A stretch of 64,000 bases of DNA, from assembly GCA_963787255.1 (NCBI GenBank), contig CAWBCJ010000001.1:1-64000 (forward strand), given 5' to 3'. The stretch comes from Methanobacteriota archaeon. GTDB lineage: Archaea; Methanobacteriota; Methanobacteria; Methanobacteriales; Methanobacteriaceae. Numbering within the stretch: position 1 is the first letter of the stretch; the number at the start of each line of letters is the position of its first letter. A model generated the notes under the pieces. That model was given only the letters and a program-made list of their open reading frames with translations. It did no database searches and had not been told where the DNA came from. This document shows, one piece after another, positions 1 through 24,820 of this stretch. The translations under genes were made by a program, and so were the position numbers.

Positions 1-88
1 CATTGAATGTCCTTATCAATTACTTGTAAGCTTTCAAAATTTTTTTATTGTAATAATTTACTACGCTATCTGGTAATGGCATACTCAT
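1..88 (-). CDS. N-terminus of probable major capsid protein (runs off window)
   Basis: AGGTG RBS then ATG at 88 (MSMPLPDSVVNYYNKK, then an apparent indel). Assignment is positional only, directly after the cement gene. Confidence 0.35.
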
Positions 89-98
89 TTCACCTACA

Positions 99-711
99 TT
101 ATCTTATTTTCATTGGCACGATATCTGCTGCATCGCCGCCTACTTAAGTATTCTCCAAATACTGTTTCTTCTTGTGTTTATTGTCAGCTAATTCCGCTTC
201 GTAAATCCTGCAGTTACTTCGGTTATTGTTTGGTTCGCTTCTGGATCGTTTCTTCATCAATTAATGCGTTTACTGCTGTGTTTATCTCTGTTCCTGTAGG
301 AGTAGCGCCTAAAGTTAGGTCTGGAAAGTCAGTTGCTGCTTTAGCGGTTAATGTTGGTGCTGTAAGTGCTGGTTTAGCTTGACCGTATCCTCTACCTGCT
401 GTACTTCCAGGGATACATTCCTGGCCTGCTGTAACAGTTGCACCTAATTTAACATAAACAGTACCGGAATCAAAGGCTGTTACTGTTTCGCCTGCTTTCC
501 AGCCTGTTCTTTTAACTATTCCTCCCGCCCCATCGGACACCATCATGTCTTCTGGCGGTATTGCAACGGCTATAGGTATATCCCCTGCACCTGCAAGGTT
601 TCATTTAGTTTTATCAGTTGCATTAAACTTTATTAGACTGTATGGGGGTATATCTTCTGCTGCTATAAGTTCTATTGCTATTTCATTTCCATAAAATGGT
701 TTTGGTCCCAT
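99..711 (-). CDS. Capsid cement/head decoration protein (DUF2190-like), frameshifted
   Basis: Reconstructed MGPKPFYGNEIAIELIAAEDIPPYSLIKF...AGAGDIPIAVA...AGETVTAFDSGTVYVKLGATVTAGQ...GGDAADIVPMKIR. Includes ORF 223-546; GAGGTGA RBS; lies after the scaffold. Confidence 0.55.
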
Positions 712-735
712 AACTAATCACCTCAAAAAATAATA

Positions 736-2231
736 TTATTCTTGGGCTGTGCCCATTTCCTCAATTTCTTTTCTAAGCTCATCAGATTCTTCTTTATCCT
801 TATCAGCCTGTTTTTTAAGTGTTTCATCATTAGTAAGTGGAATCTCCCCTGCAGGGATCTTTTTAAGCGCCTTTTCCATTATCTTGTTATAATTTTTAAT
901 GCAACTATCAGGATCTTCTTCAAGTTCTTCCTTGGAGAATTCAGTTTCAAGTGTCTTCATAAGCTCTTTTTCGTTTATGATTTCTGTTTCTTCATCGTAC
1001 TTTTTAGTTAGATCCAATGCTGTTTTTACAAGGGTTTTGTGCTCTTTTTCTGCTACAGATTGTATGGTGCCATACATATCCTTTTTGAGTTCGGTATTTT
1101 CATCTTTTAGTGTTTTAAGTTCTTTTTTAAGCTCTGTATTCTCTGTTTTAATGCCATCGATGTCTTTTTTCATGTTTTCAAGTCTTTTGAATATCGTCAC
1201 CGCTAGGATCTCCAGCTGAATCCGTTTCTGGATCTGGAGTCCTTCTCTTCAATTCCAAACAATCCTTTAAGGAACTGTCTTTACCTTATCTCCTGCGTAT
1301 TTAAGTTTTTTCATCTTGCTTTCTCTAATTCTACACCTTCAGGTATCTCTATATCAGTCAATTTACCGCCTCTAACATCTTTAAGCATTTCATCATAAAA
1401 TACGGCCATCTTTTCAACCCACTTATTATCAACTTCTGCGGGCTCACCAATCGCAACCTCCCCATTTTCATCAAGGCTGTATGGCACGGCATAGACTTTA
1501 TCTTCATCATAGGATTCAGCAATAACAGCATTCGGCCAGGTACACCTAACCCAAAACTTAGATTCTGTCGCCTATAGTGAATTTATCATTTATAGCAGCT
1601 CTTATCTTGCTACTAAGTGCCTCATAAGATTCGCTTTCATTCAAATCCACATTTTCCACTTCCTTCTCTATTTTAAAACCTTCATCGTATGACTTGAAAA
1701 TCGGAGCACATATCGGACAATCCTTAGTTACTGCCTGGGCTGTCCCCAGTGGTATCCCATGCTGCTGGCGTGTCGGTTAATGCTGCTTTAAAAATACGTA
1801 CACCATCAATCTTTCTCAGACCGTCACGGTGCCTTTTCAGATTTTGGTTGCTTTACCCTGTACGCTGCCTCCGAGATGTGAACCAGAATCAACAAGATCC
1901 TTTATAGTATCCCTCCATTCTTTACGTACACGGAGATTCCACCCATGACGTCTTTGTCTCTCAAGCCACGCATCAGTGACAGGCCCTATAATCGCTTTCA
2001 AGCCCTTCTGATGACTGTCATCGATGTTGACGCCTTTAAGTTTACTTCCATCACATTAATGCCTTTAGCCGGTTCCACCATTTCGCCCAGGGCCTTTTCA
2101 GTCATCTGATCCCCTTGAAGATGGGGCTGGAGCTGCTTATTCCAAGTTTAATATGATAATAACTGTCATCACCGTCGTAGCCTTTCATTAATGGCATTGG
2201 AAACTGAAAAGTCATTGCTTAAAATTGACAA
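736..2231 (-). CDS. Prohead protease fused to coiled-coil scaffold, multiply frameshifted
   Basis: Reconstructed fragments QGDQMTEKAL, NIDDSH, IIGPVTDAW, LGGSVQG and AALTDTPA match the HK97-type protease pattern. C-terminal ORF 736-1200 is a K/E-rich heptad coiled coil. GGAGGTGA RBS. Confidence 0.65.
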
Positions 2232-2659
2232 AAATTTTTCACCTCCGAAAAAAAATTAGTTTAAAAAAAAGTATATTAGTATTTGAAGCAATTTAATGCG
2301 ATTAAAGATTAAAACATTAATATAGGAGATAAAATTATTAAATTATTCAGATAGACAAAATAAGATAAAATTTAAAAATTATTTAGAAATCTTTAAACAA
2401 TTCAAGATTATATAAACTCAATTCAATTAATTAAAAACATAAAATGAATTAATCATACATACCCAACATAAATAAATATCATTATAAAAAAAATCATTAA
2501 AATGATGAAAAACTATATAAAATCCCTATAGTAGTTTTTACAACATCCCGCGAAGAAGAATGAATAAAATGTTATTGATTTGGGGTGTAAGTACATATAA
2601 CAATACCCCTGAGTTTGTGGGGGTTGAACACATAATGAAACAATTAAACAAATTATAAA

Positions 2660-3107
2660 TCACCATATGACCAAGCATGTAACCATAGTCCAAAATTCCT
2701 CAATAGACTTAACCAGTTTAGAAATGGTTAAAATCAATAGGCTTAACAATATAACAATTTAGCATGCATATCATAAGCCCTCTTAACTTCAACCGCCTCA
2801 TCGGAAGTACCCAAAATAATAAGAAGGAATTTTCTTCAACTCATCATCATCCTTAATTAACTCTAAAATATGCATTCCCCCACCTTTGGGCATTTTCAAA
2901 TTCCAAAACAATAATATCCGGCAAAGAAACACCCGTATATGCTCCTTTTTGATATAAATAATCCAATGCCAGGGCACCATCACTAACATGCCCAATTTTA
3001 ATATAAGATTTGGAATCTTTAAAGAAATCTTTGAAAAAGCGTGCATCACCGGGATTATCCTCAACCAACAAAACCTTCATGGTTTTATATTCTCCTATCT
3101 TATCCAT
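2660..3107 (-). CDS. Single-domain response regulator (Rcp1-like), frameshifted
   Basis: VLLVEDNPGD...DGALALDYLYQ...LPDII; C-terminal VKSIEEFW in another frame. Confidence 0.8.
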
Positions 3108-3275
3108 TAATCCACTTTAATAACTGTATAACTTTAGGAATCGAATGTTTTTTGTGTGACAAACTTATAATCATTAATTTCTAAATTAAATTATTAAAAT
3201 GACCTTTTATCATTAACATGACATTATTACCATATTAATCCCTATTTAAGAACCGTCCCCCCCACAATTTTAGGG

Positions 3276-5375
3276 TTAAAGGAAATTGTGAAATAAAAAG
3301 TAGAACCCACACCAAACCTTGACTCCACCCAAACACGGCCACCATGCACGCTCAACTATCCTTTTAACTATAGCTAATCCTATTCCAGTACCTTTATATA
3401 CCTCTCGCGTATGTAAACGCTGGAATATTATAAAAATACGCTTCTGCATACTGTGGTTCGATACCAATACCATTATCAACTACTGAAAAAAGATATTTCC
3501 TTTTTCTTCGTCTTTGCGGGCGGATAATATGGATTTTTGGATGTTCATCTGGCTTTTTAAACTTAATAGCATTCCCAATAAGATTTTGGAACAATTGAAC
3601 TAACTGTGTTTTATCAGCAGTTATAGTTGGAAGCTTATCAACTGTGATTTCTGCATGACATTCTTCACTTGAAGTTTTAAGATTAGATAAGACACTATCC
3701 AACACTTCTTCTGTATCCACTTCCTGGAATTCTTCTCCTTGTGTTGCTACTCTGGAATATTGTAACAAATCATTAATTAACTGCTGCATACGTTTTGCCG
3801 CTTCTACAATGTAATCCATGAATTCGTCAGCATCAGAATCTAATTTACCTTTATAACGCCTTTCAAGAAGTTGTGTGAAGCTTGCAATAGTACGTAATGG
3901 TTCTTGTAAGTCGTGACTGGATACATAAGCAAATTGTGTTAATTCTTCATTGAACGTTTTAAGTCACTTAATAAGGTTTCAATTTCATCTTCAGCTTTTT
4001 TACGTTCTGTAATATCTCTAATAATTGCTAAAATACCTATGGATTTACCTACATTATCTTTAAGCATTGTTGTTACGGCTTCTATCCTTATTCTTTCGCC
4101 ATTCTTCTTTACATGGATATTTTCACCGCGCCAATATCCTTTAGTCATTAAATCATGACTTGAAATTTTCTCATCTTCAGGTTTAACCCATTCAAATGTG
4201 TAAGCATCAGTAAGAAATTTATTTATTACCTCTTCCTTTTTAAGTCCATAAAGGCGTTCAGCTCCTTTATTCCAGTAAGTAATCCTATAATCATTATCGA
4301 TCGAAATTACAGCATCATTGACTTGAGACAATATCTTCGGCTTGTATTCTAAGTTTCTCGGTTCTTTCTTCTACTTTTAACTCTAAAGTATCGTAGTTCT
4401 TGTAAGGCTTCTTCAGCTTTTTTACGTTCAGTTATATCTCTTACTACGGAAACCGATCCAATAATGTTTCCAGTGGCATCTTTTATTGGATTAGAATAAC
4501 TTGACGATGGCGTAATTCTCCAGTAGTCAGAATCCGAACGATTTCCCTTGATTCTTAATAACTTCTCCTTTAGGGCGCATAAAGGGTGGAGCTTCCTCTA
4601 CGGGGCGTAGCGTACCACATCAGGGCGGTACACTTCAGCACTGCCAGCGATTTTTTCAACATCATTATCTTTAAAAAGTCATTACCAAACCCACCTACAA
4701 CCGCAGGGTTAACTATTCTAAATTTTTATTAGCATCAGCAAACCAGACCTCATCAGGAATACTATTTAATAGACTTGAAAGCTTGTCCTTCTCCTTCTTC
4801 CAACCGAAGCCAATAATTCTTGTACATTATCCTCAGCTTTTTTACGTTCTGTAATTTCGGTTATAATTATGCGGTATTTTTCATCAAGCTTATCATATAT
4901 TGGTATAATTTGCATTTGAACATAAAATAGTGATTTTTTCCCTTTTTTTAACTGTAGTTCAACTTCTTGACTTCATGCTTAACCATTGCATCTTTAATAG
5001 AACGATAATATTTAGTCTGGTAATCTTGAGGTATGAATAGGATGAAACCAAACCCAATAATCCTGTCTTTTTCTAATCCGAAGCAATTCTGCCCCTTTAA
5101 TGTTCACATTTCTTACATTTCCTTTATTATCCAATGAAAAGTATCCTACAGGCGCTTCATTGTACATTTCATGGTATTCATCGTAAAGATTTGATAATTC
5201 CTCTTGAGTCTCCCTTAGTTCTTCATTCTGCATTTCCAGCTCTGTTTGATGAACCTGAAGCTCATGCACCAACTCAGCAGTGCTTTCAGGGATATTGCCT
5301 TTTACTTTGGCATCTTGCATCTCTTTTTCTGCACGCTCATGCGTACAAAGAATCAGTTTTTTTTATTTAACCCAT
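3276..5375 (-). CDS. PAS-domain sensor histidine kinase, frameshifted
   Basis: ORFs 5012-5320, 3939-4331, 3394-3819 and 3276-3479 give coiled coil, PAS, H-box (SHDLQEPLR), N-box (NLIGNAIKF), DNGIG and GTGIGL. Confidence 0.85.
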
Positions 5376-5654
5376 CTTCAGACTCTAAATGTGCTAGATA
5401 TTCTATAACTTAATCTTTGAATAATCATTTGGTTTCCATAACCTATTCTTTATCATAAAAAAAAGGATATGCATGTGATTGATTGAATATTTCCCGGAAT
5501 TCATCCCCGATCTGACGTTTCCAAGGTCTTTTCTATGCTTTTTATTTAGGTTAGTGTTCCATTGTCCATTTAAAAAACACCTTGAAACTTATATAATTTA
5601 ATTATAATTATATTTCTTATGATTTAATTTTTCACAAATATTATTAAAAAAAAT
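4830..5654. repeat. Long direct repeat, copy 1 (kinase 5' end plus upstream region)
   Basis: Highly similar by eye to 20440-21241, ending in CACAAATATTATTAAAAAAAAT. Confidence 0.9.
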
Positions 5655-5685
5655 GAAAAATTTAGACATACGGTTTTAAACAACC

Positions 5686-6993
5686 CTAATTTCTTCCAAT
5701 CATTACACCACCAAGATTAGGTGAGAAAATAAATGGTTTATCAAGCCATTCACGGATATCTGGCTGGCTAAATGCACCTGTAGCCCAGACCGAACTGATA
5801 ATCTGGGCTGCTTCAAGTAAATTATTTGCAAGAAAGGGGTTATATTCAACTTCTAATCTGCCCTCGGTTATTTCATTGCATTTCTGAGCATGTTTACTCA
5901 CTTGGCAATATCTCAATGATGGGTGTGTGAACAAAATTCCGTGATCCCTTTTCTAGCATGCTGATAAAAGTTTCTGCAAGAGTACGAATGTATCGCGGTT
6001 AACATACTGTGAAACATGAGTAGTGGCATGGGTACTCTTTGTTTGAAACTATAGACTTTCAAGGCTTGATTTTTCAATTTCGCCTAGTTTAACTTCTTTT
6101 CCTCCGAAGCTGGCTTCTATTACTTTTTGCCAGTCATAAACTGCTACGGTTCCGCCGGTTTCTTCTTGTCGGCGGTAAAATTGGGCAGTGTCATCTAAAT
6201 AATTTTGAGCTTCATTAACATCTTCTTTGATTTTCTTTCCATATTCACTTTCAGCGATCTTTTCGGTGTCAATTTCAATAACACGGAAAAGATTAGCATA
6301 TTTATGTCCAAGTCGGTCGCGGTAGTGGGGGAATCTTGCAATAGTCCTTAAATCGGTTATGCTGTTCATTAAATCAGAATTACCATAAGGGCTGTATCTT
6401 GTCATAGGGTTATTAGTGGAATAAATTATACGTTCAGCTTCCAGGGTAACTGGCTTGTTTTACGGTCCACGGTAGGTGCATATTGTTCGTATGTTTTGGT
6501 GCCTGTGGTATCGGCCATAACTTCTCGGATGCTCTTATCGGTTAGTGTCATGGGGTTTATACAGTCTATTCCCATTACCTTCTCTTTGGGGCTGTAATAG
6601 AATCCCCCACTTTTATCATAGGTTTTAACTATGCTGGATCTTCCAAGTACGCGGTAAAATACTGCGTGTTGTATCATTGTGGTGTAAAAATCAATTTTTT
6701 TAAAGAATTTTTCTGTAATTTTCTTTGCTTCCATGCCGGATTCTTCATCTTCAAATCCTACAGGTTTAAGCTGCCAGCCTACACCAAGTTCTGCATAGAC
6801 TTTTAAATCAATAAATGGTCCTGCAGCTCCACGTCAGATAATGCAGGAGCAATTCATTATCCGATGCAATGGGGAAGTCTGTTATTTGGCGTATTGAATA
6901 ATTTATAAAGTGTGGATCATATCTTCTCATGGCCTGCATAATCCGGTCATTGGGATCATGGCTCATGATGGGCAAACTATTTTTATTTGTCAT
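5686..6993 (-). CDS. Portal protein, frameshifted into four or more pieces
   Basis: ORFs 6808-6993, 6426-6734, 6049-6405 and 5686-5934 directly after TerL; YSPYGNS motif and terminal DIREWL motif typical of portals. Confidence 0.7.
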
Positions 6994-8383
6994 GCTTTAC
7001 TTCTCAATGTTGGATTAAATTTAACCCGGTCCTTCTTATCTTTAATAGGGTGTAGCTTGTTAATTATTAATGATAAGCTGTCAATACGGTCATCGTGCTT
7101 TGTTTCTTCATCATCTTCTTTGATTTTATCAAAATTGGGGAAGTTAATCGCCTGTTTAGTGAAAATATCCAGGTAAGGATTTTTAGGGTCATCTAAAAAT
7201 AGTAACTTTCCTTCGTTAATTCTTGGCACTAATCGGCCTGCACGTATAACCTTATTCTTAAACACTGGCACCATGGTGACATTATAATCATTAAATTCGT
7301 TTAGCCAGTGATAATCAACAATGTCTCCTGCTGCTGCGGGCTGATGCTCAATCCACTGTTCAACCTCAAGGCCATCTACTGCCATGGTTACTTTCATCCG
7401 CTTTTCTAGGTGACCCGGTAATTTCTTAAAGGATTCCTGTTTAACCACAACTTCCAGGTCATTTTTAAATACCATTAACAAGTGTTGATGCAGTGTAATC
7501 GTTATGTTTTTTATCAGTGGCAGCTATATCCCATCCCCTGATCATCATTAATAATTCATTCTCTTTTAATATCTCCTTGTACTGTTTTAGATTGATTGTG
7601 GCTTTATCAATCATTTCAGCATCAAATATATCCCCTGATTTAGGTGTGTAATGCCAATCACCATCTTTCTGGTATTTACGATCCATAAATGTAAGGTTAT
7701 CAAGCGTTTTACTATACACTACTTTGTTAATAAAAGGGTTATGCCGCCAATCTAATGGAAAATAGGGTTTATTCCCATCAACGTATGTTTCTCTTAGGTA
7801 TTCTGTACTGGGACCTCCAGGATTGGAGAGATTGATCATTGCAATATTTATTCTTGCGTCAAGGGCATTTCTGAGGGATCTAAATAGAAAAGTTAAAATA
7901 TTTGGATCTAATTCAGAAGCTTCATCATTAATAATCCGGTCGTAAGATTCACTTTTGACTTTACCTTTCTTTTTAACATTATCAAATGCTTTAAACCAAA
8001 CTTTAGCTCCATAAGGTGAAGTAATTCTTAGTTTAGATTCATTTGCAGTGCAAGCTAAATTCTTTAATCGTTCTTCATCGCAGGCCCAGGCTTTTAGGTT
8101 TTCCCATATACTGTCTTCACCGGTTAATTCAGCATAATTAAGCCGGGTGACCAAGCAGCTGTAATCAGGAACATCTAGGTATTGGCTTGCAAGCATTGTG
8201 CCAAGGAAAGTTTTTCCCCCATAGCCCCCCGCACCGATGAGGGCTGTGTTGGCTTCATTATCAACTAAAGGTTTATTTACTTGGAATATGGGCCATGACT
8301 GCCTTGGATATGGCTTATAGTAAAATATAATCGTTTTTGCAGATGCTTTCATCAAATAATAATAAATCGTGTTTAGTAAGCAT
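6990..8383 (-). CDS. terL: Terminase large subunit, frameshifted
   Basis: Walker A GAGGYGGKT, Walker B IINDEASE, coupling motif SNPGG, RNase H nuclease WDIAA..DYTA and HDDRIDSLS. Confidence 0.92.
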
Positions 8384-8384
8384 G

Positions 8385-8909
8385 TTACTTTGGAATTTTT
8401 TGATTATCATCTGTATCATTGCTCACTTCAATATATTGCAGGAGCTTATCTACACGAGTAAAAACTGTTTCTGTTTCAATTTTTCCAGAGTATTCATGTT
8501 TCATGGATCCTTTTTGTTCAGAGATGTCTGTAGGTTGATTCTGGATCAATAAGCTCGTTTTAATTAAACGCACCAAATCTTGACTATGTTCAATAGGAAT
8601 GGGCTCCCTGGTCTTATTATTAACTTCATCAATATATTTATTTAAAGAAAAATGAATAATACCAAGATATTTAGCCTTATTATCAACAATAGTGGCATTT
8701 ATTCTCTCCTCTAAAGAATTTTGAACGCTAACGTCTCTTATGGCCATTTTATTTTCCCAATCAAATTTTGTACGCCATCGCCTAACAGTCCTATCATTCA
8801 CACTAAAAGTGTTAGCAACTGACAAAACGCTTTCAGCGACACTCATACCTTCATTGAGTTTAAGGTAGTAGTGTTCGAATGCGTCTTTGTGTCTATACTG
8901 TTCTTTCAT
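8385..8909 (-). CDS. terS: Terminase small subunit
   Basis: N-terminal HTH (VANTFSVNDRTVRRWRTKFDW), helical core and HEYSG tail, immediately upstream of TerL. Confidence 0.75.
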   Translation of the reverse strand: MKEQYRHKDAFEHYYLKLNEGMSVAESVLSVANTFSVNDRTVRRWRTKFDWENKMAIRDVSVQNSLEERINATIVDNKAKYLGIIHFSLNKYIDEVNNKTREPIPIEHSQDLVRLIKTSLLIQNQPTDISEQKGSMKHEYSGKIETETVFTRVDKLLQYIEVSNDTDDNQKIPK

Positions 8910-8916
8910 AATAATA

Positions 8917-10198
8917 TCAACTAATTAGATTATTTTTTTGGTTTGCTTTTTGTCCTGTGAATTCTTCCCACCGCTTAATTATTAAGTCACAGTAATGAGG
9001 GTCTAATTCCATCATGTAGCAGGGTCGGTCTGTTTGTTCACAGGCGATGAGCGTAGTGCCACTTCCTCCAAATGGATCAAAAACTTTTCCTTTATTACTG
9101 GTTCCGTATAAAATAAATTTACTGCATAATTTTAATGGTTTTTGTGTAGGATGCCCTACACGCTCAGTACTGGATTGCATTGCTGCATACTTCATCACTG
9201 TTTTAGGGTAACGCTCCCCAGTTTCATTTACCTTGTCTGTACGTTTCATGCCATTAATGGGTGATACACCATGTCCTTTTAGTTTGTAGGGTTCTCCTTC
9301 ATCCATCACTAGATCCAGATTTGTGGTCATATCCCTTACCCTACTCCTTTTTCGTTTAAACAGGTAGATGTTTTCATGATTCTGTTGGAATCGGCCCTCT
9401 ACGAAGTTTGCAAATTGGGGTTTTTCCCAGATGCATTCCTGCCAAAAATCAAAATCAATTTTTGTGAAGCTGTTTATTATATCATTTCCAAAGGGTAATT
9501 TACAGAAAATATGAATTTGCCCCGTAGGAGTTAATAATTCATTAAATAACTGTGAGAGGGCATTCCAGTTTAATTTAACATCCCAATCTTGCGCTATTTG
9601 TCCATAAGGAGGATCTGTAAAAATTAAATCAATCAACTCATTCTCTAAAACTTTGTTTATATCTTCATTATCTGTAGAATCTCCACACATCAACCGATGC
9701 CGGCCTAGTTGCCAGATGTCTCCTATTTTACATGTGGATTCAACTTCTTTTTCACCGGGATTGAAATTATCTTCTTTAATACTGGTTTTATCCGCTATTT
9801 TTGTTTCAATTTCTTGTAATTCTGTTTCATTAAAACCAGTTAACATTACATCAAAGTTTGCAAGTTTCAAGTCAGTGTTTAGTGTTTGTAGTTTTCCATA
9901 ATTCCAATCTGATTCTTCACCTAATTTATTATCTGCTAGCATATATGCAACTGCTTCAGGAGCTGTCATGCATGTGTTTCATGCGTCTAAATGGAACTTC
10001 CTCTAGTTTTAGTACATTTTTTGCTGCTAGGTATGCGCCTTCACCTGCTAGAATGTAATTATCATGGCTGATAATTATGGGCCTTCCCCAATCCAATTCC
10101 TTGATACTTTTAGCAATTTTTTGTATTTGTTCTTCACTATGATCTCTTGGATTTTTAGGGTGGGGCTTTATATCCTTGATTTTAATAAATTCCTTCAT
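8917..10198 (-). CDS. ParB-like domain fused to N4/N6 DNA methyltransferase, frameshifted
   Basis: IKPHPKNPRDH...YILAGEG (ParB), ADNKL, DPPY catalytic motif, HPTQKP, DPFGGSGTT SAM motif; a common neighbour of TerS in tailed viruses. Confidence 0.88.
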
Positions 10199-10223
10199 TT
10201 TTTTCACCCATTTACATAAAAAT

Positions 10224-10496
10224 TTATAATCCTTTTCCTTTTGCAATTTCTTTTAATTGTTCTAAAAATTCTTTAAATTCTTTTTTATCACTCATTTCAC
10301 CATTAAGAGCCGCTATCCATCTTAACATAAAATCTACTTTTGTTTCAAGCCGTGCTATACTTTCTCCACTTTTAGGGTCAACACATTCTTCTACTTTAGC
10401 AAGTCTTTGAAGTGCATTAACAAGAAATATCCCCAAAACAATTGATGGACCTAATATTATTCCAGTTATGGTTATCAACAATTCCAGATTGTCCAT
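10224..10496 (-). CDS. Small membrane protein with coiled coil (holin-associated type)
   Basis: One N-terminal TM helix then IARLETKVD coiled coil; in the viral operon. Confidence 0.55.
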   Translation of the reverse strand: MDNLELLITITGIILGPSIVLGIFLVNALQRLAKVEECVDPKSGESIARLETKVDFMLRWIAALNGEMSDKKEFKEFLEQLKEIAKGKGL

Positions 10497-14548: not shown

Positions 14549-14649
14549 TATTTTCAGCCTCTACGACTGATTTATAAGTATTATTATATACTGAATATGT
14601 ATTATTTATTATTTTCAAATAGAAATAAATTTTACTAATTAAATTCATT

Positions 14650-17090
14650 CTATTTATTAATTGGAATAGTAAAATAAAAAGTAGAACCCACACCAAACTC
14701 TGATTCAACCCAAACACGACCACCATGACGCTCAATTATCCTTTTAACAATGGCTAATCCTATTCCTGTTCCTTCATATTCTCCAATGGGGTGTAATCTT
14801 TTGAATACTTCAAAGATACGGTCAGTATATTGTGGTTCTAATTCCTATTCCATTATCCGTACACTAAAAATATATTCATTATCTGTCTTTTCGTGCTTTA
14901 ATATGAATTTTAGGTTTTACTCCTTCCCTGTGGAATTTTAATGCATTTCCTATTAAATTCTGGAATACACTTGTAATTTGACTTTCATCAGCAATAATCA
15001 CCGGAAGTGAATCATGAGTATACTTCAGCATGGCATTCTTCAATAGCAGACTTTAAATTGGATAAAGCATTATTTAAAGCCTCTTCAGCATTGAACTCAT
15101 TAAACTCTTCACCTCGAGTTCCTAACACGAGAATACTCCAGTAAACCTTGAATCATATCCTGTTTCATTCTGGTAGCGCCAGCTAACCATGAAGTCAATG
15201 AATTCATCAGCATCACTATCTAATTGGCCTTCATAACGCCTTTTAGAAGTTGAGCATAACTGGCAATACTCCGTAATGGTTCCTGTAGGTCGTGACTGGT
15301 AATATAAGCAAAACTTTGTAATTCCTTGTTTGAACGTTCCAATTCATTTACGGTTTCCATTAAATGCTCTTCTGCTTGTTTTATTTCAGTAATATCACGT
15401 GCAGCGGCAAATACTCCTATAACTTCACCAGATTCATCTTTATAAACTGTAGCATTGTATAAAACAGGTGTTATATATCCATCTTTATGCTTAATCTCCA
15501 GAGGATAATCACGCACAAAACCTTCCCTGAATACCTGCTTATATCCAGATCGGGCTTTTTCATGTTCAGTGAAATAGTCTGAAAAGTCAGTTCCAATAAG
15601 TTCATCCCTAGGATAACCAGTAACAGCTTCTGTAGAGCTGTTTACATCGTTGATTTTCCCATCAGGCCCAATAGTAACTAGAGGATCCAAACTGGATTCA
15701 ATCAAACTACGATTATAAATACTTGCTATTTCAAGTTCTTTATTCGCTACTTGAAGCTCTGCGGTCCTTTCATTTACTCGCACCTCAAGCTCATCATAAG
15801 ACCTATGAAGTTCTTCTGTTGTAGACTGCAGTTCTTCATTGGATACTTCTAACTCTTCATTTAATTGCTGTGTTTCGTATAATAAATTTTTAATTTGATT
15901 TCAGCTTTTCTGCGTTTAGTTATATCAGTAAAAAATGTGGCAAATTGTCCTTTTTGTGGGGAAAATGCCACGATATCAAAATATCTTATCCAAAGGTGGA
16001 GAATATTGTTCAAAACTAACTGGTTCCCCATTAATTAGCTACGTTACCATACTTTTCAATAAAATCTGATTCATTTATACCTGGAAGAACTTCTGTAACT
16101 CTTTTACCAATAATATCCTCAACTTTTAATTCTGTAAACCTTTCAAAAGCATTATTAGCCGCTAAAAACGTAATCAACAGGATTTCCAGCATTATCCGTT
16201 GTAATTTCATGCAGGGCAAATCCTGTAAGCGGATTATTAAATAATTCACGATAACGTTTTTCACTCTTACGAAGATCTTCTTCAGCTTTTTTACGCTCGG
16301 TAATTTCGATTTCAAGGTCTGTTTTGGAGGCGGTAATGGTCTTCAACCGAGCCGTCATCTGATTGAACGCCTGTGACAATTCTCCAAATTCATCGTCTTG
16401 TTCCTCTTCAATGGTATGATCAAGATTTCCTGAACCGATAATTCTTGTTCCAGCTTGTAAATTAGACATAGCTGTTAATGTGCGCCTGTAAATCAAAAAA
16501 TAATTGGTAAGAAGAAATGCAACAACAGTTCCCAACAGAGCAGAAATAAGCAAGATATTTAATTGATTCAGTTGAGCTTCTTCATCATGTAATTCCTGTG
16601 ATAGGCGTGAAGCATCAAAAACTATCCCTTGGGTTTGAACCCCTAGCCGGCTCGATGAAACCTGAGCAAATTCAGGGCTTAATGCGTTTAGTTGACCTGA
16701 AGATGTGTTTGAAGAGCTTGATACGATTCCTTCAAAGGTTTCTTTCAATCGTTGTTGATTTACCTTGATATTATTGATAATCACTTGCTGATCGGGATTA
16801 TTCGTTCTCAAATTCGATATATCACTGGAAAACGAAGAATATTTTGAATTCCATCGATCTATCTGCTGACTTTCACGATACAGAAGATAATCATTAGATA
16901 AATAACTAAGATCACCAGCTTTAAGTTCAACATTTTTTACAATTTCTTGCTGTTTATTTAACTGTTCTACTTGTTGATTTGTGATAATTACCGATGCAGA
17001 GATGATAAGCAGAGCTATGACAAAAAATACCATGCTAATAATCAATTGTGTTCTGATTTTCATAATATTATTCACTTCATCGTCATTCAC
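14650..17090 (-). CDS. Membrane HAMP-PAS sensor histidine kinase, frameshifted
   Basis: Two TM helices flanking an extracellular helical domain, HAMP ([13 protein letters not shown]), PAS domains, H-box, and HATPase fragments to 14650. Confidence 0.85.
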
Positions 17091-17091
17091 T

Positions 17092-18099
17092 TTAACTGAT
17101 TATGTTTACTGATTCAGGCTTTACTTTCTCAAGGCTGGCTGTGTATATATAATTTCGGAAGTCCGGTATTTTAGTTTCATTCGTTAAATTATTGGCAATC
17201 ATCCAGCGAGCTTCATCTTCCATGGCAAAGATAAGCGACTGGTCAAGCGATAGGGAGAATTGATTCTGCTTCCAGACCGTATCCATATATGCATCGCTGA
17301 GGTTCAGCCGTTTCTGCACGATGGCCCTGGATTCGGCAGGATGAGTGTTGACATACTCCTCAGCCTGTACTAGAGACTTAAGGAATCTGCTGGCAAGTTC
17401 AGGATGCTTTGTTATCCAGTCCTCTTTGCATATTATCAGCGCATAAAGGGGCTGATTACTTTGTGCAGGCCAGAAAACAGCGTTAGTGCCCAGACGATCT
17501 TTGGCAGAATTAGCATAAGGTTGGGCAGTTGCAATCGCATCAATGTCTCCATCCGCAACTGCATTCACCCATTCTTCTGGAGTCTTGACATCAACAAGAG
17601 TTATATCCTGCATATTCATGCCATGCAGATTGAGAAACCTCCCAAGATGGAATTCTGCTATCGTTCCTATGGTAGTTCCAACTTTTTTCCCCTTGAGGTC
17701 TGAAACATTCTCAATTCCCCGATCCTTCCGTGCAACAATATACGTGAACTCACCTTTATTGATGGTTCCAATTGTGCGAATTTTCTCTTTCTTGAACGCC
17801 TTTTTAACTAGTGGAAACTCGGTTACGCCCACAGTAAGGTCTGCTTCACCATTTATTACCCCATCTAATGAAGCTGCTCCAGAATCATACTTACGCATGG
17901 TTATATTGAGGCCATTATCCTTAAAGAAGCCTTGATCTTCGGCAATCCAAAAAAGTGCGGTGGATTCAAATGGCGAATACGCGACTGTGATTGAATCCAT
18001 ATTCGTGGAGCTTTTTTGAAAGTCGAAAAAAGTCAATATACTAAATCCTACAAGCGCTATTACGACAATGACAGCTATTATAACAACATTTTTTTTCAT
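17092..18099 (-). CDS. NMT1/SsuA-family substrate-binding protein
   Basis: N-terminal anchor, WIAEDQGFFKDNGLNI, DLKGKKVGTTIGT, GDIDAIATAQP. Confidence 0.88.
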   Translation of the reverse strand: MKKNVVIIAVIVVIALVGFSILTFFDFQKSSTNMDSITVAYSPFESTALFWIAEDQGFFKDNGLNITMRKYDSGAASLDGVINGEADLTVGVTEFPLVKKAFKKEKIRTIGTINKGEFTYIVARKDRGIENVSDLKGKKVGTTIGTIAEFHLGRFLNLHGMNMQDITLVDVKTPEEWVNAVADGDIDAIATAQPYANSAKDRLGTNAVFWPAQSNQPLYALIICKEDWITKHPELASRFLKSLVQAEEYVNTHPAESRAIVQKRLNLSDAYMDTVWKQNQFSLSLDQSLIFAMEDEARWMIANNLTNETKIPDFRNYIYTASLEKVKPESVNIIS

Positions 18100-18167: not shown

Positions 18168-20981
18168 TCAATTTTCAACTAGCTCAACAGGTATTGTGAA
18201 ATAAAATGTCGAACCCTCACCTAACTCGGATTCAACCCAAACACGACCATCATGACGTTCAATAATCCTCTTAACAATCGCTAATCCAATTCCAGTTCCT
18301 TGATATTCTCCAATAGGGTGTAATCGTTTGAATACTTCAAAAATACTGTCTACTATATTGTGGTTCTATTCCAATTCCATTATCGCTTACTGAAAAAACG
18401 CATTCGTTATCCTTTTTTTGTGCAGAAATATGGATTTTAGGCTGAACACCTTTTTTACGGAATTTTAATGTATTTCCTATTAAATTCTGGAATACAAGAC
18501 TTATTTGACTTTCATCAGCAACTATATTGGGAAGATGGTCGTGGGTTACTTCTGCATGGCATTCTTCTATTGCATATTTCAAATTAGTCAAAGCATTATG
18601 GAGCGCTTCTTCACTACTAAATTCCTTGAATTTTTCTCCTTGTGTACCCACACGAGAATACTCCAACAATCCTTTAATCATATCCTGCAATCTGACTGCG
18701 CCACTAACCATATATTCAATGAAATCGTCAGCATCACTATCTAATTTACCTTCATATCGCCTTTTAAGCAACCCTGCATAACTTCCCATAGTTCTTAATG
18801 GTTCCTGTAAATCATGGCTGGTAATATAAGCAAAACTCTGTAATTCCTGATTAGAACGTTTTAATTCATTAATTGTTGTTTTTAATTGTTTTTCTGCTCT
18901 ATCACGTCTTGTAACATCATATAAAAATACTAAAACAGAAATAGAACCATCAGGATTATTTATAGGGGTGGCCAATACATCATAAGTTTTATTTGTCTTA
19001 AATCGATGTTGTTCCCATTCAACAATATTACCTTCGAAAGCTTTTTGAATTTTACAATTGGAACAGATATCTTGCTCATTATAAAAATATTCATAACATT
19101 TTTGCCCTTTAAAAAGTCCAAAATCTTTCTCTATTACGGAATTAATATATTCTAATTCATAATCGCTATTTAAAATGTATACTCCACTTTTCGTTGTATT
19201 AAGAATACTATTTAGATTATCTCTTTCTGTTTGAAGCTCTAATGCTCGCTCTTTAACTTGTTCTTCTGATTTTTTAAGTTCAGTAATATCACGTGCTGCC
19301 GCAAAAACACCAATAACCTCACCATATTCATTTCTATAAACTGAAGCGTTGTACAGTACAGGAGTTGGACTTCCATTTCTGTGTTTTATTTCAAGTGGAT
19401 AATCCCGAACTTCACCATCCCTGAACACTCTTTGATACCCCGATTTGGCCTTTTGGGGTTCTGTGAAATAATCTGAAAAGTCTGTACCAATCAATTCATC
19501 TCGTGAATATCCTGTAACCAGTTCTGTAGCTGTATTTACATCAGTTTATTTTTCCATCAGGACCAATGGTAACCAGAGGGTCTAAACTGGATTCAATCAA
19601 ACTACGGTTATAAATACTTGCCAGTTTTAAAGCTTCTTCAGCTTTTTTACGCTCAGTTATGTCACGTGCAGCGGCAAAAACTCCGATAACTCTACCAGAT
19701 TCATCTTGATAGACTGAAGCATTATATAATACAGGTGTAACATGTCCATCTTTATGTTTAATCTCTAAAGGATAATCAATCACCTTACCCTCTTTGAAAA
19801 CTTGAATATAACCTTTTTTAGCCTTTTCAGGCTCAGTGAAGTAACCTGAAAAATTAGTTCCGATAAGTTCATCCCTGCTGAAACCAGTGACCATTTCCGT
19901 AGCTGTATTTACATCTGTAATCCTTCCATCGGGACCAATGGTAACCAGAGGGTCTAAACTGGATTCAATCAAACTACGATTATAAGCATTCGCTAATTTA
20001 AGTTCATGTACGTTCCTGAACTTGTTCTTCAAGATTATCATGAGCATTATAGAGCTTCTTCAGGCTTTTTACGTTCAGTTAAATCATGTGCATATACAGT
20101 AGCACCAATCACTTTCCCATTTGAATCTTTAATAGAAGTATGAAATATTGAAAAATAACGACGATTCTTGAGGATTATCACCCGCAATTGATTCCATATG
20201 CACCATTTCCCCGTTGAATGCCTTATCAAAGTTTGCTTTGGCATTTTCACGGTCTTTAACGTTTGTGTGATAATCAAGTATATTTGCACCTATTTCAATA
20301 TCAGCATTATAGAGATTTTTCATTACTTTGGCATGTTGCGAGTTGAAGCTTGTATATCGATAATTACAATCAACAGAAAATATAGGTCCTTCTGCGCTTC
20401 CATTACAAATTAAGTATATTATGCTTCTGTAAAAGTTCTTCCTCAGCTTTTTTACGCTCAGTAATATCGGTTATAGTTATGCGGTATTTTTCATCAACCT
20501 TATCATATATTGGCATAATTTGCATTTGAACATAAAATAGTGATTTTTTCCCTTTTTTTAACTGTAGTTCAACTTCTTGAATTTCATGGTTAACCATTGC
20601 ATCTTTAATAGAACGATAATATTTAGTCTGGTAATTTGAAGGTATGAATAGGATGAAACCAAACCCAATAATCCTGTCTTTTTCTAATCCAAGCAATTCT
20701 GCCCCTTTAGTGTTCACATTTCTTACATTTCCCTTATTATCCAATGAAAAGTATCCTACAGGCGCTTCATTGTACATTTCATGGTATTCATCGTAAAGCT
20801 TTGATAATTCCTCTTGAGTCTCCCTTAGTTCTTCATTCTGCATCTCAAGCTCTGTTTGGTGAACCTGAAGCTCATGCACCAACTCAGCAGTACTTTCAGG
20901 GATATTGCCTTTTACTTTGGCATTTTGTATCTCTTTTTCTGCACGCTCACGCAATGAACCAGTTTTTTTATTTAACCCCAT
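18168..20981 (-). CDS. Multi-PAS sensor histidine kinase, frameshifted
   Basis: ORFs 20403-20981, 20129-20323, 19541-20047 and 18337-19494; H-box and HATPase motifs to [10 protein letters not shown]. Confidence 0.85.
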
Positions 20982-21241
20982 CTTCAGACTCCTAAATGTG
21001 CTAATTATAACTTAATCTTTGAATAATCATTTGGTTCCCATAACCTATTCTTTATCATAAAAAAAGGATACCCATGTGATTGATTGAATATTTCCCTGAA
21101 TTCATCCCCTTATTGGGGTTTAAGAGTCCTTTATGCTTTTTTTATTGGTTCTGTCCATTTAAAAAACACCTTGAAACTTATATAATTTAATTATAATTAT
21201 ATTTTATGATTTAATTTTTCACAAATATTATTAAAAAAAAT
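20440..21241. repeat. Long direct repeat, copy 2
   Basis: Highly similar to 4830-5654. Confidence 0.9.
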
Positions 21242-21303
21242 ATTTTACTTTTCAGATGCTCTTGCATTAAACCCATTAAATACAGCACTTACCGGTGTTA
21301 AAA

Positions 21304-21414
21304 ATGAACATGACAGATGCAAGAGTACGCAAATGTAAGAATGTATCGATTTTAATTGATAATAAGATGCAAGAACGCAGAATCGAACACGACAAATGTA
21401 CATTTTTATGCTAG
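21304..21414 (+). CDS. Unannotated small ORF, family copy A (MNMTDARVRKCKNVSILIDNKMQERRIEHDK...)
   Basis: GGTG RBS and ATG; synonymous differences versus copy at 61842. Confidence 0.55.
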   Translation: MNMTDARVRKCKNVSILIDNKMQERRIEHDKCTFLC

Positions 21415-21590
21415 ATAAAAATACTTCTATAATACGAGAGGGGTTAAATAAAAAAAATTAAAATTCAAAATTTTAGAACTGTATTAATCCTCTTCTTCAA
21501 ACTCGATTTTTATGCGGATATCGTCACAGATAGGTTTACATAACCTTTCCTGCAATAATAATCATATTATAATTGTAGGAGATATTTAAA

Positions 21591-22448
21591 ATGGAAGTTA
21601 TACTTCAACAGTTTGCTAATCTCAGTGTTTTAATATATATTGTTACCACTATGCTGTCTATGGGTCTTAATTTTTTCCCTAAACAATTTTTAGAACCTTT
21701 AAAGGATAAGAGTCTCATATTAAAGTCTTTAGCTGCAAATTTCATATTATTGCCCATCATAACCTATATTATACTGCAAGTGATTCCCCTAGAGCAGGGT
21801 CTTGCCATTGGCTTAGTTTTAATGGCTGCAGGGGCAGGATCCCCCTTCATGCTGAAATTGGTTCAATTTATGAAAGCAGATATGGCATTTGCAGTGGGGC
21901 TGATGTTAATATTATCCATAGTGACCTTATTTTATATGCCATTAGTACTTTCTATTTTGTTACCCGGTGTTTCGGTAAATCCCCTGTCTATTGCAGTTTC
22001 CCTATTGGTCTTGATATTTTTACCCTTGATCATTGGAACTGCTGTAAAGTCAAGGTATAGTGAAATAGCTAAAACTATTCAACCCACTTTTAACCAGATA
22101 TCTAATATATTCATCTTCGTAGTGATATTTCTATATCTGGGTCTTAACTACCAGGACTTTCTGGCAGTATTCGGTACAGGAGCATTGATAGCTTCTTTAA
22201 TATTTGTATTATCAGCTTTCTTAATAGGCTACTTACTAGGAGGCCCTTCCAAAAATACAAAATCAGTGCTAGGTATGGGGACTGCTATAAGAAACTCATC
22301 TGCCGCATTTGTGGTAGCAGTTACCAACTTTAGCTCAGAATACGACGTCATGGCCATGATAATCGTAGTTTATATGCTCAGCATAATTACAATGATGATC
22401 ATTTCAGGTGAGATGGGTAAAAGATCCAAAGGTTCAGAAACACTATAA
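21591..22448 (+). CDS. Bile acid:sodium symporter (BASS) family transporter
   Basis: MLSMGL, ANFILLP, AIRNSSAA; about 9 TM helices. Confidence 0.88.
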   Translation: MEVILQQFANLSVLIYIVTTMLSMGLNFFPKQFLEPLKDKSLILKSLAANFILLPIITYIILQVIPLEQGLAIGLVLMAAGAGSPFMLKLVQFMKADMAFAVGLMLILSIVTLFYMPLVLSILLPGVSVNPLSIAVSLLVLIFLPLIIGTAVKSRYSEIAKTIQPTFNQISNIFIFVVIFLYLGLNYQDFLAVFGTGALIASLIFVLSAFLIGYLLGGPSKNTKSVLGMGTAIRNSSAAFVVAVTNFSSEYDVMAMIIVVYMLSIITMMIISGEMGKRSKGSETL

Positions 22449-22467
22449 AAATACAGGCACCGCACTT

Positions 22468-23256
22468 TTATAATTTACCAAATCTAGTATTAGAACTTCT
22501 AATACTAGCAGAATCCACAGCTTCCCATCTCCCACTGTTAACAAACTCTAACCTACCTTCAATTACTAATTTATCAATGATTTCCTTAGTTTCCCATTCT
22601 CCTTCATTATTATTTGGAAGCTTTGCAATTTTGCGAACTTGATCCAAAGAAACTGCTTGACCTACATTCAACTTACGGTAAACAATAGCTGCTTTATCTT
22701 CACTCATTTTAAATGAAGTCAGTCCTCTAATTTGGATACGTTTCTCATAAAGTTCTTTTAAATCATCAGGAATATTCACAAAATTGTACCGATTCACTTT
22801 CCATAAATTAGTACCACAAATATTTTCAACTCTACCTGTTTCTCTTAACCGTTTACTCCAATGTTCTCTCCAAGCATATTTACTATCATTACCCGTAATT
22901 CTTTTGACCAATCTTTTTAGATAATCGGTGTTTACTTTATCCTTAAAATATATGGGTCCTTTATCAAATTCATCAAAAAATTCATTTTCAGCCATAGTCC
23001 TTTTTTCATAAGCAACAGTGGTGGTTAATTCCTCACGTATAGAACCTTCAGGTGGAAGTTTCAGTGGAATATCTCCATTATAATTTTGTGCCGTTTTATC
23101 TGCATCTACCAAATATCCGTGATTTAATAAGTTTTCTAATGCCTCTTCTAAACTTATTCTGGTAGAGCGCCATGATTGACCATGATAAAAATAAACTGCT
23201 CTTGCAAATCTTCTCCACAAATCAGCATTTACAGCAGGAGGCCTGACCCTTTTCAT
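22468..23256 (-). CDS. Hypothetical DNA-binding protein (RHH-like N-terminus, winged-helix-like C-terminus)
   Basis: VNADLWRRFARAV...SLEEALENLL and VSLDQVRKIA...KEIIDKLVIEGRL; GGTGA RBS before ATG 23256. Confidence 0.55.
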   Translation of the reverse strand: MKRVRPPAVNADLWRRFARAVYFYHGQSWRSTRISLEEALENLLNHGYLVDADKTAQNYNGDIPLKLPPEGSIREELTTTVAYEKRTMAENEFFDEFDKGPIYFKDKVNTDYLKRLVKRITGNDSKYAWREHWSKRLRETGRVENICGTNLWKVNRYNFVNIPDDLKELYEKRIQIRGLTSFKMSEDKAAIVYRKLNVGQAVSLDQVRKIAKLPNNNEGEWETKEIIDKLVIEGRLEFVNSGRWEAVDSASIRSSNTRFGKL

Positions 23257-23605
23257 AAGATCACCCATATAATTGCATTTGAACCTTTGCATATTTTCTT
23301 GAAAACGGGTCCTGTTTTTAAAAAAAAGACCTGTTTTCCGATATAATATTCATTTATATTATTATATTTATAAAAAAATAATAATATAATAATACCTAAA
23401 ACATGTTCATCTTTCCTAATCTCAAAAAAAAGAGGATAAAAACATCTAAAAAAGGTTCTAAAATGTAATAATAACTTTTTTAAGGAAAATAGACTTTTAA
23501 TATGTTTATTAATGTTGATTTTTTTAATATTTTCTATATTTCTTTTTATTTTTGTGGTGTTTTTACCACCACCTTTGCAGGTTTCTATATTAGTGTTTTT
23601 CATGA

Positions 23606-23618
23606 GTGGTTGCCGCCC
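23606..23618 (-). promoter_or_regulatory. GGGCGGCAACCAC motif, copy 3
   Basis: Within a 28-bp segment (23600-23627) identical to 24371-24398. Confidence 0.6.
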
Positions 23619-23631
23619 CCATTATATTATA

Positions 23632-24018
23632 TCAATTTTTTTTATTGTAGTGAATACCATAAACCTTAAATTTCTTTGAATATTTACGTTTTCCCAGCAA
23701 ACGATCCGATTGATTTAATATGTGCCCTAATTTACGCCCTTTATTATCTAATGATAAAAAGAAAGGAGCATTCACAATTAAATCATTACTATGAATAAAT
23801 TGCATTAATTCACGCGTTATAAAATCTTCCCCGTTCATTTCATTTTCTATATAATATAATGCAAGTTTTATGACATCCTTTTCGTATTTTAACTTCTTAT
23901 TCCAAGCCTCTTTCGTGTTATCACGTCCCCTATTCCATTTTTTTAAGTAATATCCAAAATTATAACCCCACATAAACAACTCCATTTTTAAAGCTTTAAA
24001 CTCTAAAAATAAAACCAT
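23632..24018 (-). CDS. Hypothetical basic protein, possible winged helix
   Basis: ITRELMQFI...RKLGHILNQS; start uncertain. Confidence 0.45.
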   Translation of the reverse strand: MVLFLEFKALKMELFMWGYNFGYYLKKWNRGRDNTKEAWNKKLKYEKDVIKLALYYIENEMNGEDFITRELMQFIHSNDLIVNAPFFLSLDNKGRKLGHILNQSDRLLGKRKYSKKFKVYGIHYNKKN

Positions 24019-24374
24019 TCTTCAGGTAACATTCCTTTAACTTGATTTTGTGCTTTAATTGCACTTTTTGTGTTAATTTTAATCTCTGCAGCATGACCCC
24101 ATTCATCGTATCTAATTGAATCTTGCACAGATTCTTCAGTAGGCAGTTTATAAAATTTTTTACTGCTTAAATTACAAAACAAAAAATTAATGAAACTATT
24201 TTTTAAAAATAAACGAATCCAATTATTCTTAAAATGATTCACTCGAAACTCTCGAAATCTTCGATTTCGAAGCGCGAAACATAGTTTCGCTGGCTTCGTT
24301 TCGATGCATCGAAAATCAAAGATTTTCGCATAATTAGGGAAGGGAAGAATTAATCCTCCCTTAAATTGATTCAT
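24003..24374 (-). CDS. Hypothetical protein containing a palindromic repeat insertion
   Basis: 123-aa ORF starting right after motif copy 4; GGAGG RBS suggests a later start is possible. Confidence 0.35.
   Translation of the reverse strand: MNQFKGGLILPFPNYAKIFDFRCIETKPAKLCFALRNRRFREFRVNHFKNNWIRLFLKNSFINFLFCNLSSKKFYKLPTEESVQDSIRYDEWGHAAEIKINTKSAIKAQNQVKGMLPEEWFYF
24241..24330. repeat. Stacked short-hairpin palindromic element (REP/MITE-like)
   Basis: TCGAAATC-ttc-GATTTCGA, GCGAAAC-ata-GTTTCGC, TTTCGATGCATCGAAA and CGAAAATC-aaa-GATTTTCG. Confidence 0.8.
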
Positions 24375-24376
24375 GA

Positions 24377-24389
24377 GTGGTTGCCGCCC
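24377..24389 (-). promoter_or_regulatory. GGGCGGCAACCAC motif, copy 4
   Basis: Exact 13-mer; flank also resembles the 12318 copy. Confidence 0.6.
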
Positions 24390-24474
24390 CCATTATATAT
24401 TTTCCCAAAACTTCTAATTTTATGTCTCGAACTAAGCTAAATTCTTTTTTTTTAGTTTGTGACCATGAACTATA

Positions 24475-24633
24475 TTATTTTATAATTTTGTGTTTTTCAT
24501 TTTCACACCATGCACTAATCGCTTCTACCGCACCCTTTGAGAGTTTACCTTGTTTATCTCCATATTTTTCCCGGGTTAAAAGTCTGAATGTTTCTTCCAG
24601 GTCATCAGGTAAGTTAAATGTTATTGCTGCCAT
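24475..24633 (-). CDS. Ribbon-helix-helix (CopG-like) regulator, 52 aa, absent from ORF track
   Basis: MAAITFNLPDDLEETFRLLTREKYGDKQGKLSKGAVEAISAWCENEKHKIIK; GGAG RBS. Confidence 0.75.
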   Translation of the reverse strand: MAAITFNLPDDLEETFRLLTREKYGDKQGKLSKGAVEAISAWCENEKHKIIK

Positions 24634-24820
24634 GCATAATTTCTCCACTAAATAGTCTATGTTCTTATTATATACTCATATTCATAGAGAGCATGTGAAA
24701 AGTAATAATTTTATGAATTCATAAATCATAAAAAAGTCAATTATGATTAAAATTACATTTCAAAAGTGGAGACTTGTCATTTATATTAAAGATATGAAAA
24801 TTAAAAGATTATATAAAGAG

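Follow-up and report, generated by a model that had tools for sequence, protein, structure and literature searches.

The left end of contig C1 in a draft assembly of a Methanobacterium genome holds the packaging and head genes of a tailed virus, and between them stand PAS-type sensor kinases of a family that the host itself possesses in many copies. The window analysed here comprises bases 1–64000 of this contig, 64,000 nucleotides in all, and the question it raises is how viral and signalling genes came to share one stretch of DNA. A preliminary description of the locus had offered three answers: a decaying provirus used as a landing site, a virus carrying signalling cargo, or a domesticated module resembling a gene transfer agent. 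The explanation we favour, at roughly even chances, is a tailed provirus with two inserts of host kinase genes and a lost MuF-like gene, a non-inducible remnant that has served as a landing ground. The landing-site part of the first answer thus fits best, on the collinear gene order, the host-derived inserts and the loss of the MuF-like gene; that the provirus is decaying is not established, and its frameshifts may be assembly errors.

Base 1 of the window is the start of the contig, with no DNA further left, in an assembly of 2.47 Mb in 29 contigs with 95% completeness and 4.57% contamination. Nearly all genes of the first 25.5 kb lie on the minus strand and the viral operon runs from high to low coordinates. 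The gene content is observed directly. Read from 24.4 kb, it consists of an early arm, a 10-kb host-type block, a Zn-ribbon gene, a ParB-methylase gene, TerS, TerL and portal; then follow a 3.0-kb PAS-kinase and response-regulator unit, a protease-scaffold gene, a decoration gene and, at the contig end, the start of the capsid gene. The head-packaging operon interleaved with PAS-kinase cassettes of the preliminary description is therefore real, all the genes it named being found near where it had placed them and on the minus strand. The features on which the argument rests are listed below from the contig end (C numbers are contigs of this assembly, L numbers loci compared with the window).

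1–81, minus strand: start of the major capsid gene, about 20 codons (about 81 to 22, MPLPDSVVNYYNKKILKAYK) and a stop, then the contig start
95–717, minus strand: decoration ('cement')-like gene, 51% identical to L025:12951–13544 (E 1e-41; PHROG 563, E 4e-4)
748–2215, minus strand: protease-scaffold-like head morphogenesis gene with at least four frame changes
2216–2658, no strand: AT-rich non-coding spacer (22% GC) of about 0.4 kb, at the place of the MuF-like gene in relatives
2659–3116, minus strand: response-regulator (receiver) gene, broken by frame changes
3245–5362, minus strand: PAS-PAS-HisKA-HATPase sensor kinase (Pfam PAS, HisKA and HATPase_c on its pieces) with at least eight frame changes
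4830–5654, no strand: kinase 5′ end and upstream region, 92% identical to 20440–21241
5643–5654, no strand: junction T-run ATTTTTTTTAAT (as read on the minus strand), 12 nt, from a three-way alignment
5689–6993, minus strand: portal, full length, with at least five frame changes
6990–8355, minus strand: TerL, with one extra base near 7483
8385–8909, minus strand: TerS (PHROG 6299, E 1.2e-9)
8917–10246, minus strand: ParB N-terminal domain fused to an N6/N4 DNA methyltransferase (N6_N4_Mtase 1.2e-29, ParB_N 1.6e-6, PHROG 498)
10224–10849, minus strand: two small viral membrane proteins, with relatives in L003, L025 and C17
11172–12194, minus strand: viral multi-Zn-ribbon protein (TFIIB-type ribbon, E 2.3e-5, below the cut-off), with relatives in L003 and L023
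12617–21241, minus strand: host-type block with three PAS kinases, an NMT1-type binding protein and an upstream region
22468–24398, minus strand: viral early arm, a 274-aa protein (33% identity to L003:3730–4503) and three small open reading frames

Of the hallmarks of a tailed virus of the HK97 lineage, a large terminase and a portal protein are present. TerL is split over two frames (7465–8355 and 6993–7523) that match PHROG 979 at E 2e-37 and 7.6e-16, with Pfam Terminase_3 above its cut-off and Terminase_6C just below. The pieces of the broken portal gene match no Pfam or PHROG family. One of them has 11 longer relatives, the best of which (P0001) is an intact protein of 437 aa, 94% identical outside the shifted patches; PF04860 (Phage_portal) is matched by four of the eight portal relatives aligned, with a best E of 2.7e-7. 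Among 50,697 phage records the best isolate matches of TerL are MSTV1 (35.8%, E 6e-41), psiM2 (31.3%), PhiF3 (31.1%) and psiM100 (30.6%), and the portal protein has no match in this collection. A search of genome contigs with the TerL piece gave no match, nor did a metagenome search with P0001.

Further towards the contig end, the protease-scaffold gene is homologous to proteins of 597–667 aa from three viral contigs, and the L025, L022 and L023 proteins used as tblastn queries align with it in segments that fall in frames −1, −3, −2, −3 and −2. Its C-terminal part (739–1248) is a coiled coil. The label 'protease' is weak, a 'head maturation protease' PHROG match being present in only one of the two relatives tested. 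The L025 match of the decoration gene is the gene that precedes the L025 capsid gene. In the window the frame of this gene changes at least once towards the 3′ end, with the C-terminal GGDAADIVPMKIR in another frame, and the gene has an in-frame TGA at 601–603 with conserved same-frame sequence on both sides, the sole break seen that is not an indel. The capsid proteins of relatives match PHROG 264 and Linocin_M18; the window holds only about 20 capsid codons, 42% identical to residues 1–19 of the L025 protein.

Relatives were gathered by a TerL search and by alignment of portal relatives, the latter scan giving seven loci of which three are duplicates of IMG/VR loci. Collinearity with them can be read off directly: L003 has, in the order of the window, the 274-aa protein, the Zn-ribbon protein, a membrane protein, TerS, TerL, portal, MuF, protease-scaffold and capsid. 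A MuF-like gene stands directly after the portal gene in all five distinct scorable portal-family relatives (L021, L022, L023, L025 and L039) and is followed in L021, L022, L023 and L025 by protease-scaffold, decoration and capsid genes; this count leaves out two short loci (560–760 bp past the portal, no match), one locus cut at the portal and the three duplicates. No relic of the MuF-like gene was found in the window, nor in the assembly at E ≤ 0.01, and the complete set of head genes seen in the relatives is not present here. The MuF label is itself weak, Pfam PF04233 being reached by only one of four MuF-like proteins tested and with an E of 0.0073, under the cut-off. The capsid, MuF and other open reading frames of the relatives have no match elsewhere in the assembly. 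Likewise, open reading frames of at least 70 aa from seven related loci, including the genes past the capsid, are unmatched in the assembly outside the known viral stretches, save for three weak matches to unrelated host genes; the missing tail genes may reflect an assembly gap, as C1 ends within the capsid gene. Separately, L022 carries six small reverse-strand genes (8306–10662, 2.6 kb) between its MuF-like and protease-scaffold genes, so that the slot is variable among the relatives.

From the portal stop (5689) to the start of the protease-scaffold gene (about 2215) the window measures 3.47 kb, which agrees with the ~3.4-kb stretch holding a kinase and a response regulator that had been noticed to split TerS-TerL-portal from protease-cement-capsid. 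Positions 2678–3099 of the receiver gene are 91.5% identical to C25:19792–20210, where the intact copy has a Response_reg domain (E 5.8e-20). The sequence of the portal-side junction is observed directly: homology to the kinase copy at 21 kb ends at 5654, homology to the provirus copy on C17 begins at 5647, and the overlap is the T-run, which recurs in three places: past the portal gene, in the C17 copy and on the border of the kinase upstream region at 21.2 kb. Both cassette junctions sit at repeat edges beside unique viral DNA and not within a repeat. In soil-metagenome contigs only 18 letters separate the upstream edge of the kinase (5653) from the 3′ end of a different kinase (3284). The edge thus marks where units naturally end in kinase arrays, and the kinase units of the relatives, with fixed edges, stand in tandem.

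The kinases themselves belong to a host family, and both blocks derive from the host: the family numbers 35–41 loci in this genome, and its catalytic domain occurs at 35 loci in the assembly and in 21 of the 22 other genomes of the genus, mostly with 20–32 matches per genome. The exchange is recent, since the ends of the cassette are 91–92% identical to host loci. Viral relatives lack such genes: none of the eight related IMG/VR loci (seven distinct) has a kinase, and a single-sequence search of viral contigs with the kinase domain found none. An alignment-based search of IMG/VR with this domain gave 19 loci, most of them on contigs above 100 kb, and the five virus-sized contigs (L048, L057, L058, L061 and L065) have no match to proteins of the viral relatives. 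L048 (31% GC), considered as a case of a virus-borne kinase, was rejected, being bacterial chromosome (dnaN, recF, recQ) beside a Mu-like prophage.

These observations are compatible with the following course. A tailed archaeal virus of a lineage so far known from metagenomes only would have integrated into a Methanobacterium genome, its modules keeping the order of the relatives from early arm, Zn-ribbon and ParB-methylase through TerS, TerL and portal to protease-scaffold, decoration and capsid. Later, two blocks of the host's expanded PAS-kinase family would have been placed at intergenic positions, the 10-kb block between the early arm and the Zn-ribbon gene and the 3.0-kb transcription unit of kinase and response regulator in place of the MuF-like gene, between portal and protease-scaffold. 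The probable route is recombination at A/T-rich terminator/promoter boundaries, the portal-side junction lying within the 12-nt T-run. If the kinase units function at all, they would do so as host signalling genes of the ordinary kind, and the remnant is most likely non-inducible because the MuF-like gene is missing, ~13 kb of extra DNA is present and C1 has no integrase. We infer this order of events, the mechanism of recombination and the loss of viral function.

A second copy of the provirus lies on contig C17. C17:6753–12448 matches window positions 5647–10889 at 75–81% nucleotide identity, and its TerL gene is unbroken where the window has the extra base. Upstream it has a ParB-like gene, an HNH/Zn-ribbon protein gene and half of a tyrosine integrase gene, namely the C-terminal half. 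C17 (L043) opens with ~900 bp of 62–67% GC that encode a bacterial-type WG-repeat protein (Pfam WG_beta_rep, 1.6e-47), and this stretch is joined directly to the half integrase gene (C17 1–1410) in DNA of ~30–35% GC; C17 is thus a chimeric contig or contains some other foreign join. In both copies the viral homology breaks off at one and the same T-run, some 40 nt past the portal stop (window 5643–5654; C17 12440–12460). Beyond it C17 has a gene of 115 aa from a multi-copy host family and then further DNA of the island, unrelated to the flank in the window. Between the copies the ratio of non-synonymous to synonymous substitution rates (dN/dS), a measure that the preliminary description had proposed, is 0.068 for portal, 0.072 for TerL and 0.067 for the ParB-methylase, at dS values of 0.57–1.48. 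Judging from these ratios the two copies probably diverged as working genes; the reading frames of both are broken by many single-base indels, possibly through assembly error.

Several observations weigh against a dead remnant, most of them concerning the frameshifts. Genes in the window that are not viral are split too, so that the frameshifts cannot serve as evidence of decay: a fumarate-reductase-type flavoprotein gene (47039–48860) and a rubredoxin-TPP enzyme gene (48992–50760) each occupy three frames. Every break in the portal gene is an indel, and outside the shifted patches the protein is the near-copy of intact P0001 mentioned above. Between C1:25818–29581 and C3:1095–4851, which are 98% identical, 65 substitutions stand against 17 indel events, 13 of them of a single base. 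The dN/dS of about 0.07 against the C17 copy points the same way, and if the frames are really open all viral genes may be functional. No soil-metagenome contig listed bridges either virus-to-kinase junction. Moreover, the window starts at a contig end, and the assembly may simply have missed the integrase, tail and lysis genes. The remnant reading presupposes, as general background, that a viable virion requires a MuF-like protein.

Other observations on the frameshifts can be set beside these. The catalytic regions of 11 of the 35 kinases are frame-split, all of them on C1, on small contigs or within 40 kb of the start of C25, and no stop was found among the 150 congener kinase sequences listed. 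By our tally the density of frame breaks is ~3–4 per kb in 1–7 kb and ~0.3 per kb in 7–14.5 kb. A search of reads returned five runs from two studies, each with at most 0.08 of the sampled words and none listed as an RNA run; four soil-metagenome runs contained only relatives at ~88–99% identity, and the extra bases at 6835 and 9959 are absent from their contigs. On the side of real damage stand the in-frame TGA at 601–603, the intact rpoB and mcrA genes on C29 and the paralogs of the broken host genes, which are found on C29 at 42% and on C18 at 64–67% identity; because these paralogs exist, the breakage of the fumarate-reductase-type and TPP genes is no proof of assembly error.

If the frameshifts are uncorrected indels, the joints between viral and kinase DNA might be errors as well, produced by a wrong path through the repeated kinase genes that joined viral pieces to kinase units from elsewhere or from different strains of a mixed sample. 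We regard this as unlikely. The same assembly contains the chimeric C17, with its GC-rich WG-repeat stretch and half integrase, and it is fragmented into 29 contigs with 4.57% contamination; C2 and C3, which begin at positions corresponding to 23924 and 24511, duplicate part of the window at 81–98% identity; the split kinase regions have no counterpart in the stop-free congener sequences listed, frame breaks are densest near the contig end, as would fit a falling read depth, and the ratio of indels to substitutions is high (17:65). Yet both cassette junctions lie at the edge of a repeat beside unique viral DNA, C1:1–2677 having no second copy anywhere in the assembly, and a false path would still require viral DNA abutting kinase DNA on both sides. 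The order and orientation of the viral modules match the relatives exactly, as random misjoins rarely would, the MuF-like gene is nowhere in the assembly, and the core genes rpoB and mcrA are intact. A different possibility is a temperate virus that is functional and has signalling genes of host origin as cargo, in the manner of a moron, for example a two-component system sensing host or environment. The cassette looks self-contained (A/T-rich upstream region, kinase, regulator, bounded by a T-run) and is co-oriented with the late genes, L022 carries 2.6 kb of unrelated inserted DNA almost at the same position, and, if the frameshifts are errors, the low dN/dS and the 94% identical intact portal relative would fit recent function. 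Against such a virus stand the missing MuF-like gene, present in all five scorable relatives, the ~13 kb of extra DNA when the related contigs L001 and L003 measure ~38–39 kb, the in-frame TGA in the decoration gene and the 91–92% identity of the cassette ends to host loci, which speaks for a recent exchange. Cargo of this kind was not found in the related genomes: none of the five virus-sized contigs among the 19 with kinases matches proteins of the viral relatives and, in the related IMG/VR loci, the kinase count of zero in eight gives the cargo proposed in the preliminary description no support. We judge a live virus with cargo rather improbable, and we would give somewhat less credit still to its extreme form, in which the virus, its frameshifts being assembly errors, swapped the MuF-like gene for a host two-component system and took up three PAS kinases besides.

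Because both provirus copies have the same breakpoint, it is conceivable, as a bold reading, that the terminator past the portal is a place where islands of kinases take up TerS-TerL-portal modules time and again. A packaging module domesticated by the host, in the manner of a gene transfer agent or a satellite, would be in keeping with the lack of an integrase or replication gene on C1 and with two copies that end at the same T-run, differ by 19% and show a dN/dS of ~0.07; were the cut ancestral, this would mean selection on TerS-TerL-portal after truncation. However, the TerL family is sporadic, as the proposed comparison across the genus has brought out: it occurs in two of 20 other congeners, at 38–39% identity, and across the family 28 of 200 other genomes have it, which is not a vertical pattern, and its closest relatives are in another genus (63%) and on viral contigs (66–69%). 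The flanks past the shared breakpoint are unrelated between the copies, the C17 copy retains part of an integrase gene, virus-type early genes and the ParB-methylase have been kept, and neither tail genes nor a full capsid gene is found in the assembly. On these grounds we consider a domesticated module very improbable, and the third answer of the preliminary description fails the tests applied to it. The provirus that received host kinases remains our preferred explanation.

The element is ordinary in kind. It shares with MSTV1 of Methanobrevibacter smithii, psiM2, PhiF3 and psiM100 a related TerL and the general kind of head module, in contrast to which the TerL identities are low, the portal is unmatched and the nearest kin are uncultured IMG/VR and metagenome contigs. 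Compared with the related contigs that were fetched, only the window has kinase genes inside the head operon. PMC9796341 describes psiM100 as a defective provirus; in PMC13573593 the terms 'histidine kinase', 'two-component' and 'gene transfer agent' do not occur.

Morons of temperate phages are transcription units of their own that have been inserted among phage genes. The cassette of kinase and regulator resembles them in its position between late genes, its own upstream region and its T-run boundary; it differs in that it replaces a conserved head gene and closely duplicates host loci, and no packaged genome is known to contain this insert. RcGTA and the Methanococcus voltae VTA are gene transfer agents, to which the window is similar in that it has genes for head and packaging, while none for an integrase or for replication can be seen. 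Unlike these agents, which are conserved vertically, the element is sporadic, has early genes, a methylase and, in its sister copy, a partial integrase, and its head module is interrupted and devoid of MuF. The locus thus provides no support for an archaeal gene transfer agent. If the kinases were viral cargo they would be a first example in archaea of two-component signalling carried by a virus, but the evidence speaks against this; a live archaeal virus with such a system would sense the environment on its own account, and the signal might enter into the lysis-lysogeny decision. Few viruses of Methanobacterium are known, and the element adds a metagenome-only lineage whose TerL is at most 36% identical to that of any isolate. 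It offers a case of how a host gene family that has expanded can enter a provirus at terminator/promoter boundaries, and also one in which a repeat-rich, indel-prone draft assembly can mimic 'decay'.

The right end of the element lies between the last promoter-like repeat (24398) and the onset of homology to C3 (24511); the left end is unassembled, and no att or flanking direct repeats were seen in the window. As the preliminary description had stated, neither an integrase nor a tRNA gene is present at this end: the window has no tRNA gene and no Rfam match, and integrase domain PF00589 has no match on C1 and four in the assembly, on C26, C18, C24 and C17. The integrase fragment on C24 was considered as part of the provirus and rejected as unrelated. 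The arm at 22.5–24.4 kb has no integrase domain by Pfam or PHROG, and no replication gene was found on C1. A crude search of the assembly detected no CRISPR arrays.

On the far side of this boundary, C2:1–1534 is 89% identical to window 23924–25525, C3:1–1094 is 84% identical to 24511–25605, and the 98% match to C3 begins at 25818, as given above. The rnc gene that adjoins the right end of the element has four copies in the assembly (C1, C2, C3 and C18). These near-copies may be strain variants or segmental duplicates.

The host-type block and the transporter at its end comprise the following genes.

12617–14548, minus strand: intact PAS kinase of 643 aa (Pfam)
about 14640–17090, minus strand: broken HAMP-PAS kinase (Pfam)
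17092–18099, minus strand: NMT1-type binding protein (Pfam)
about 18170–20981, minus strand: broken multi-PAS kinase (Pfam)
21591–22448, plus strand: SBF-family transporter (Pfam SBF, E 3.7e-17), with a paralog at C1:126895–127743, 80% identical

An ortholog of the NMT1-type binding protein, sought as a guide to a virus-free kinase block, was found in none of 22 congeners at E ≤ 1e-30. The dispersed 'non-coding repeat' beside the kinases (window 21243–21423; C17 12521–12865) represents the 5′ portion of the genes of a small family, with full members of 112–115 aa on C17 and C6 and a 36-codon stub in the window. In the viral middle, the ParB-methylase has one extra base near 9960, the base at 9959 being absent from the contigs of relatives.

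The early arm had been described as an RHH arm about 10 kb from the packaging operon. The separation holds, and the RHH label has no support from any Pfam, PHROG or PDB match; Atlas scores reach at most 0.86, below 0.9, and weak hints of plasmid Rep-type proteins are leads only. The arm contains 29-nt promoter-like repeats at 23599–23627 and 24370–24398. Within them lies the 13-mer GGGCGGCAACCAC, which has four matches in the window, a number reached in none of 100 shuffles. Its copies (12196–12208 and 12318–12330, upstream of the Zn-ribbon gene, and 23606–23618 and 24377–24389 in the early arm) are confined to the two viral arms, apart from a single one at C2:398. They are preceded by a TATA-like A/T stretch, and three of the four copies in the window, as well as that on C2, stand 2–3 nt ahead of an ATG.

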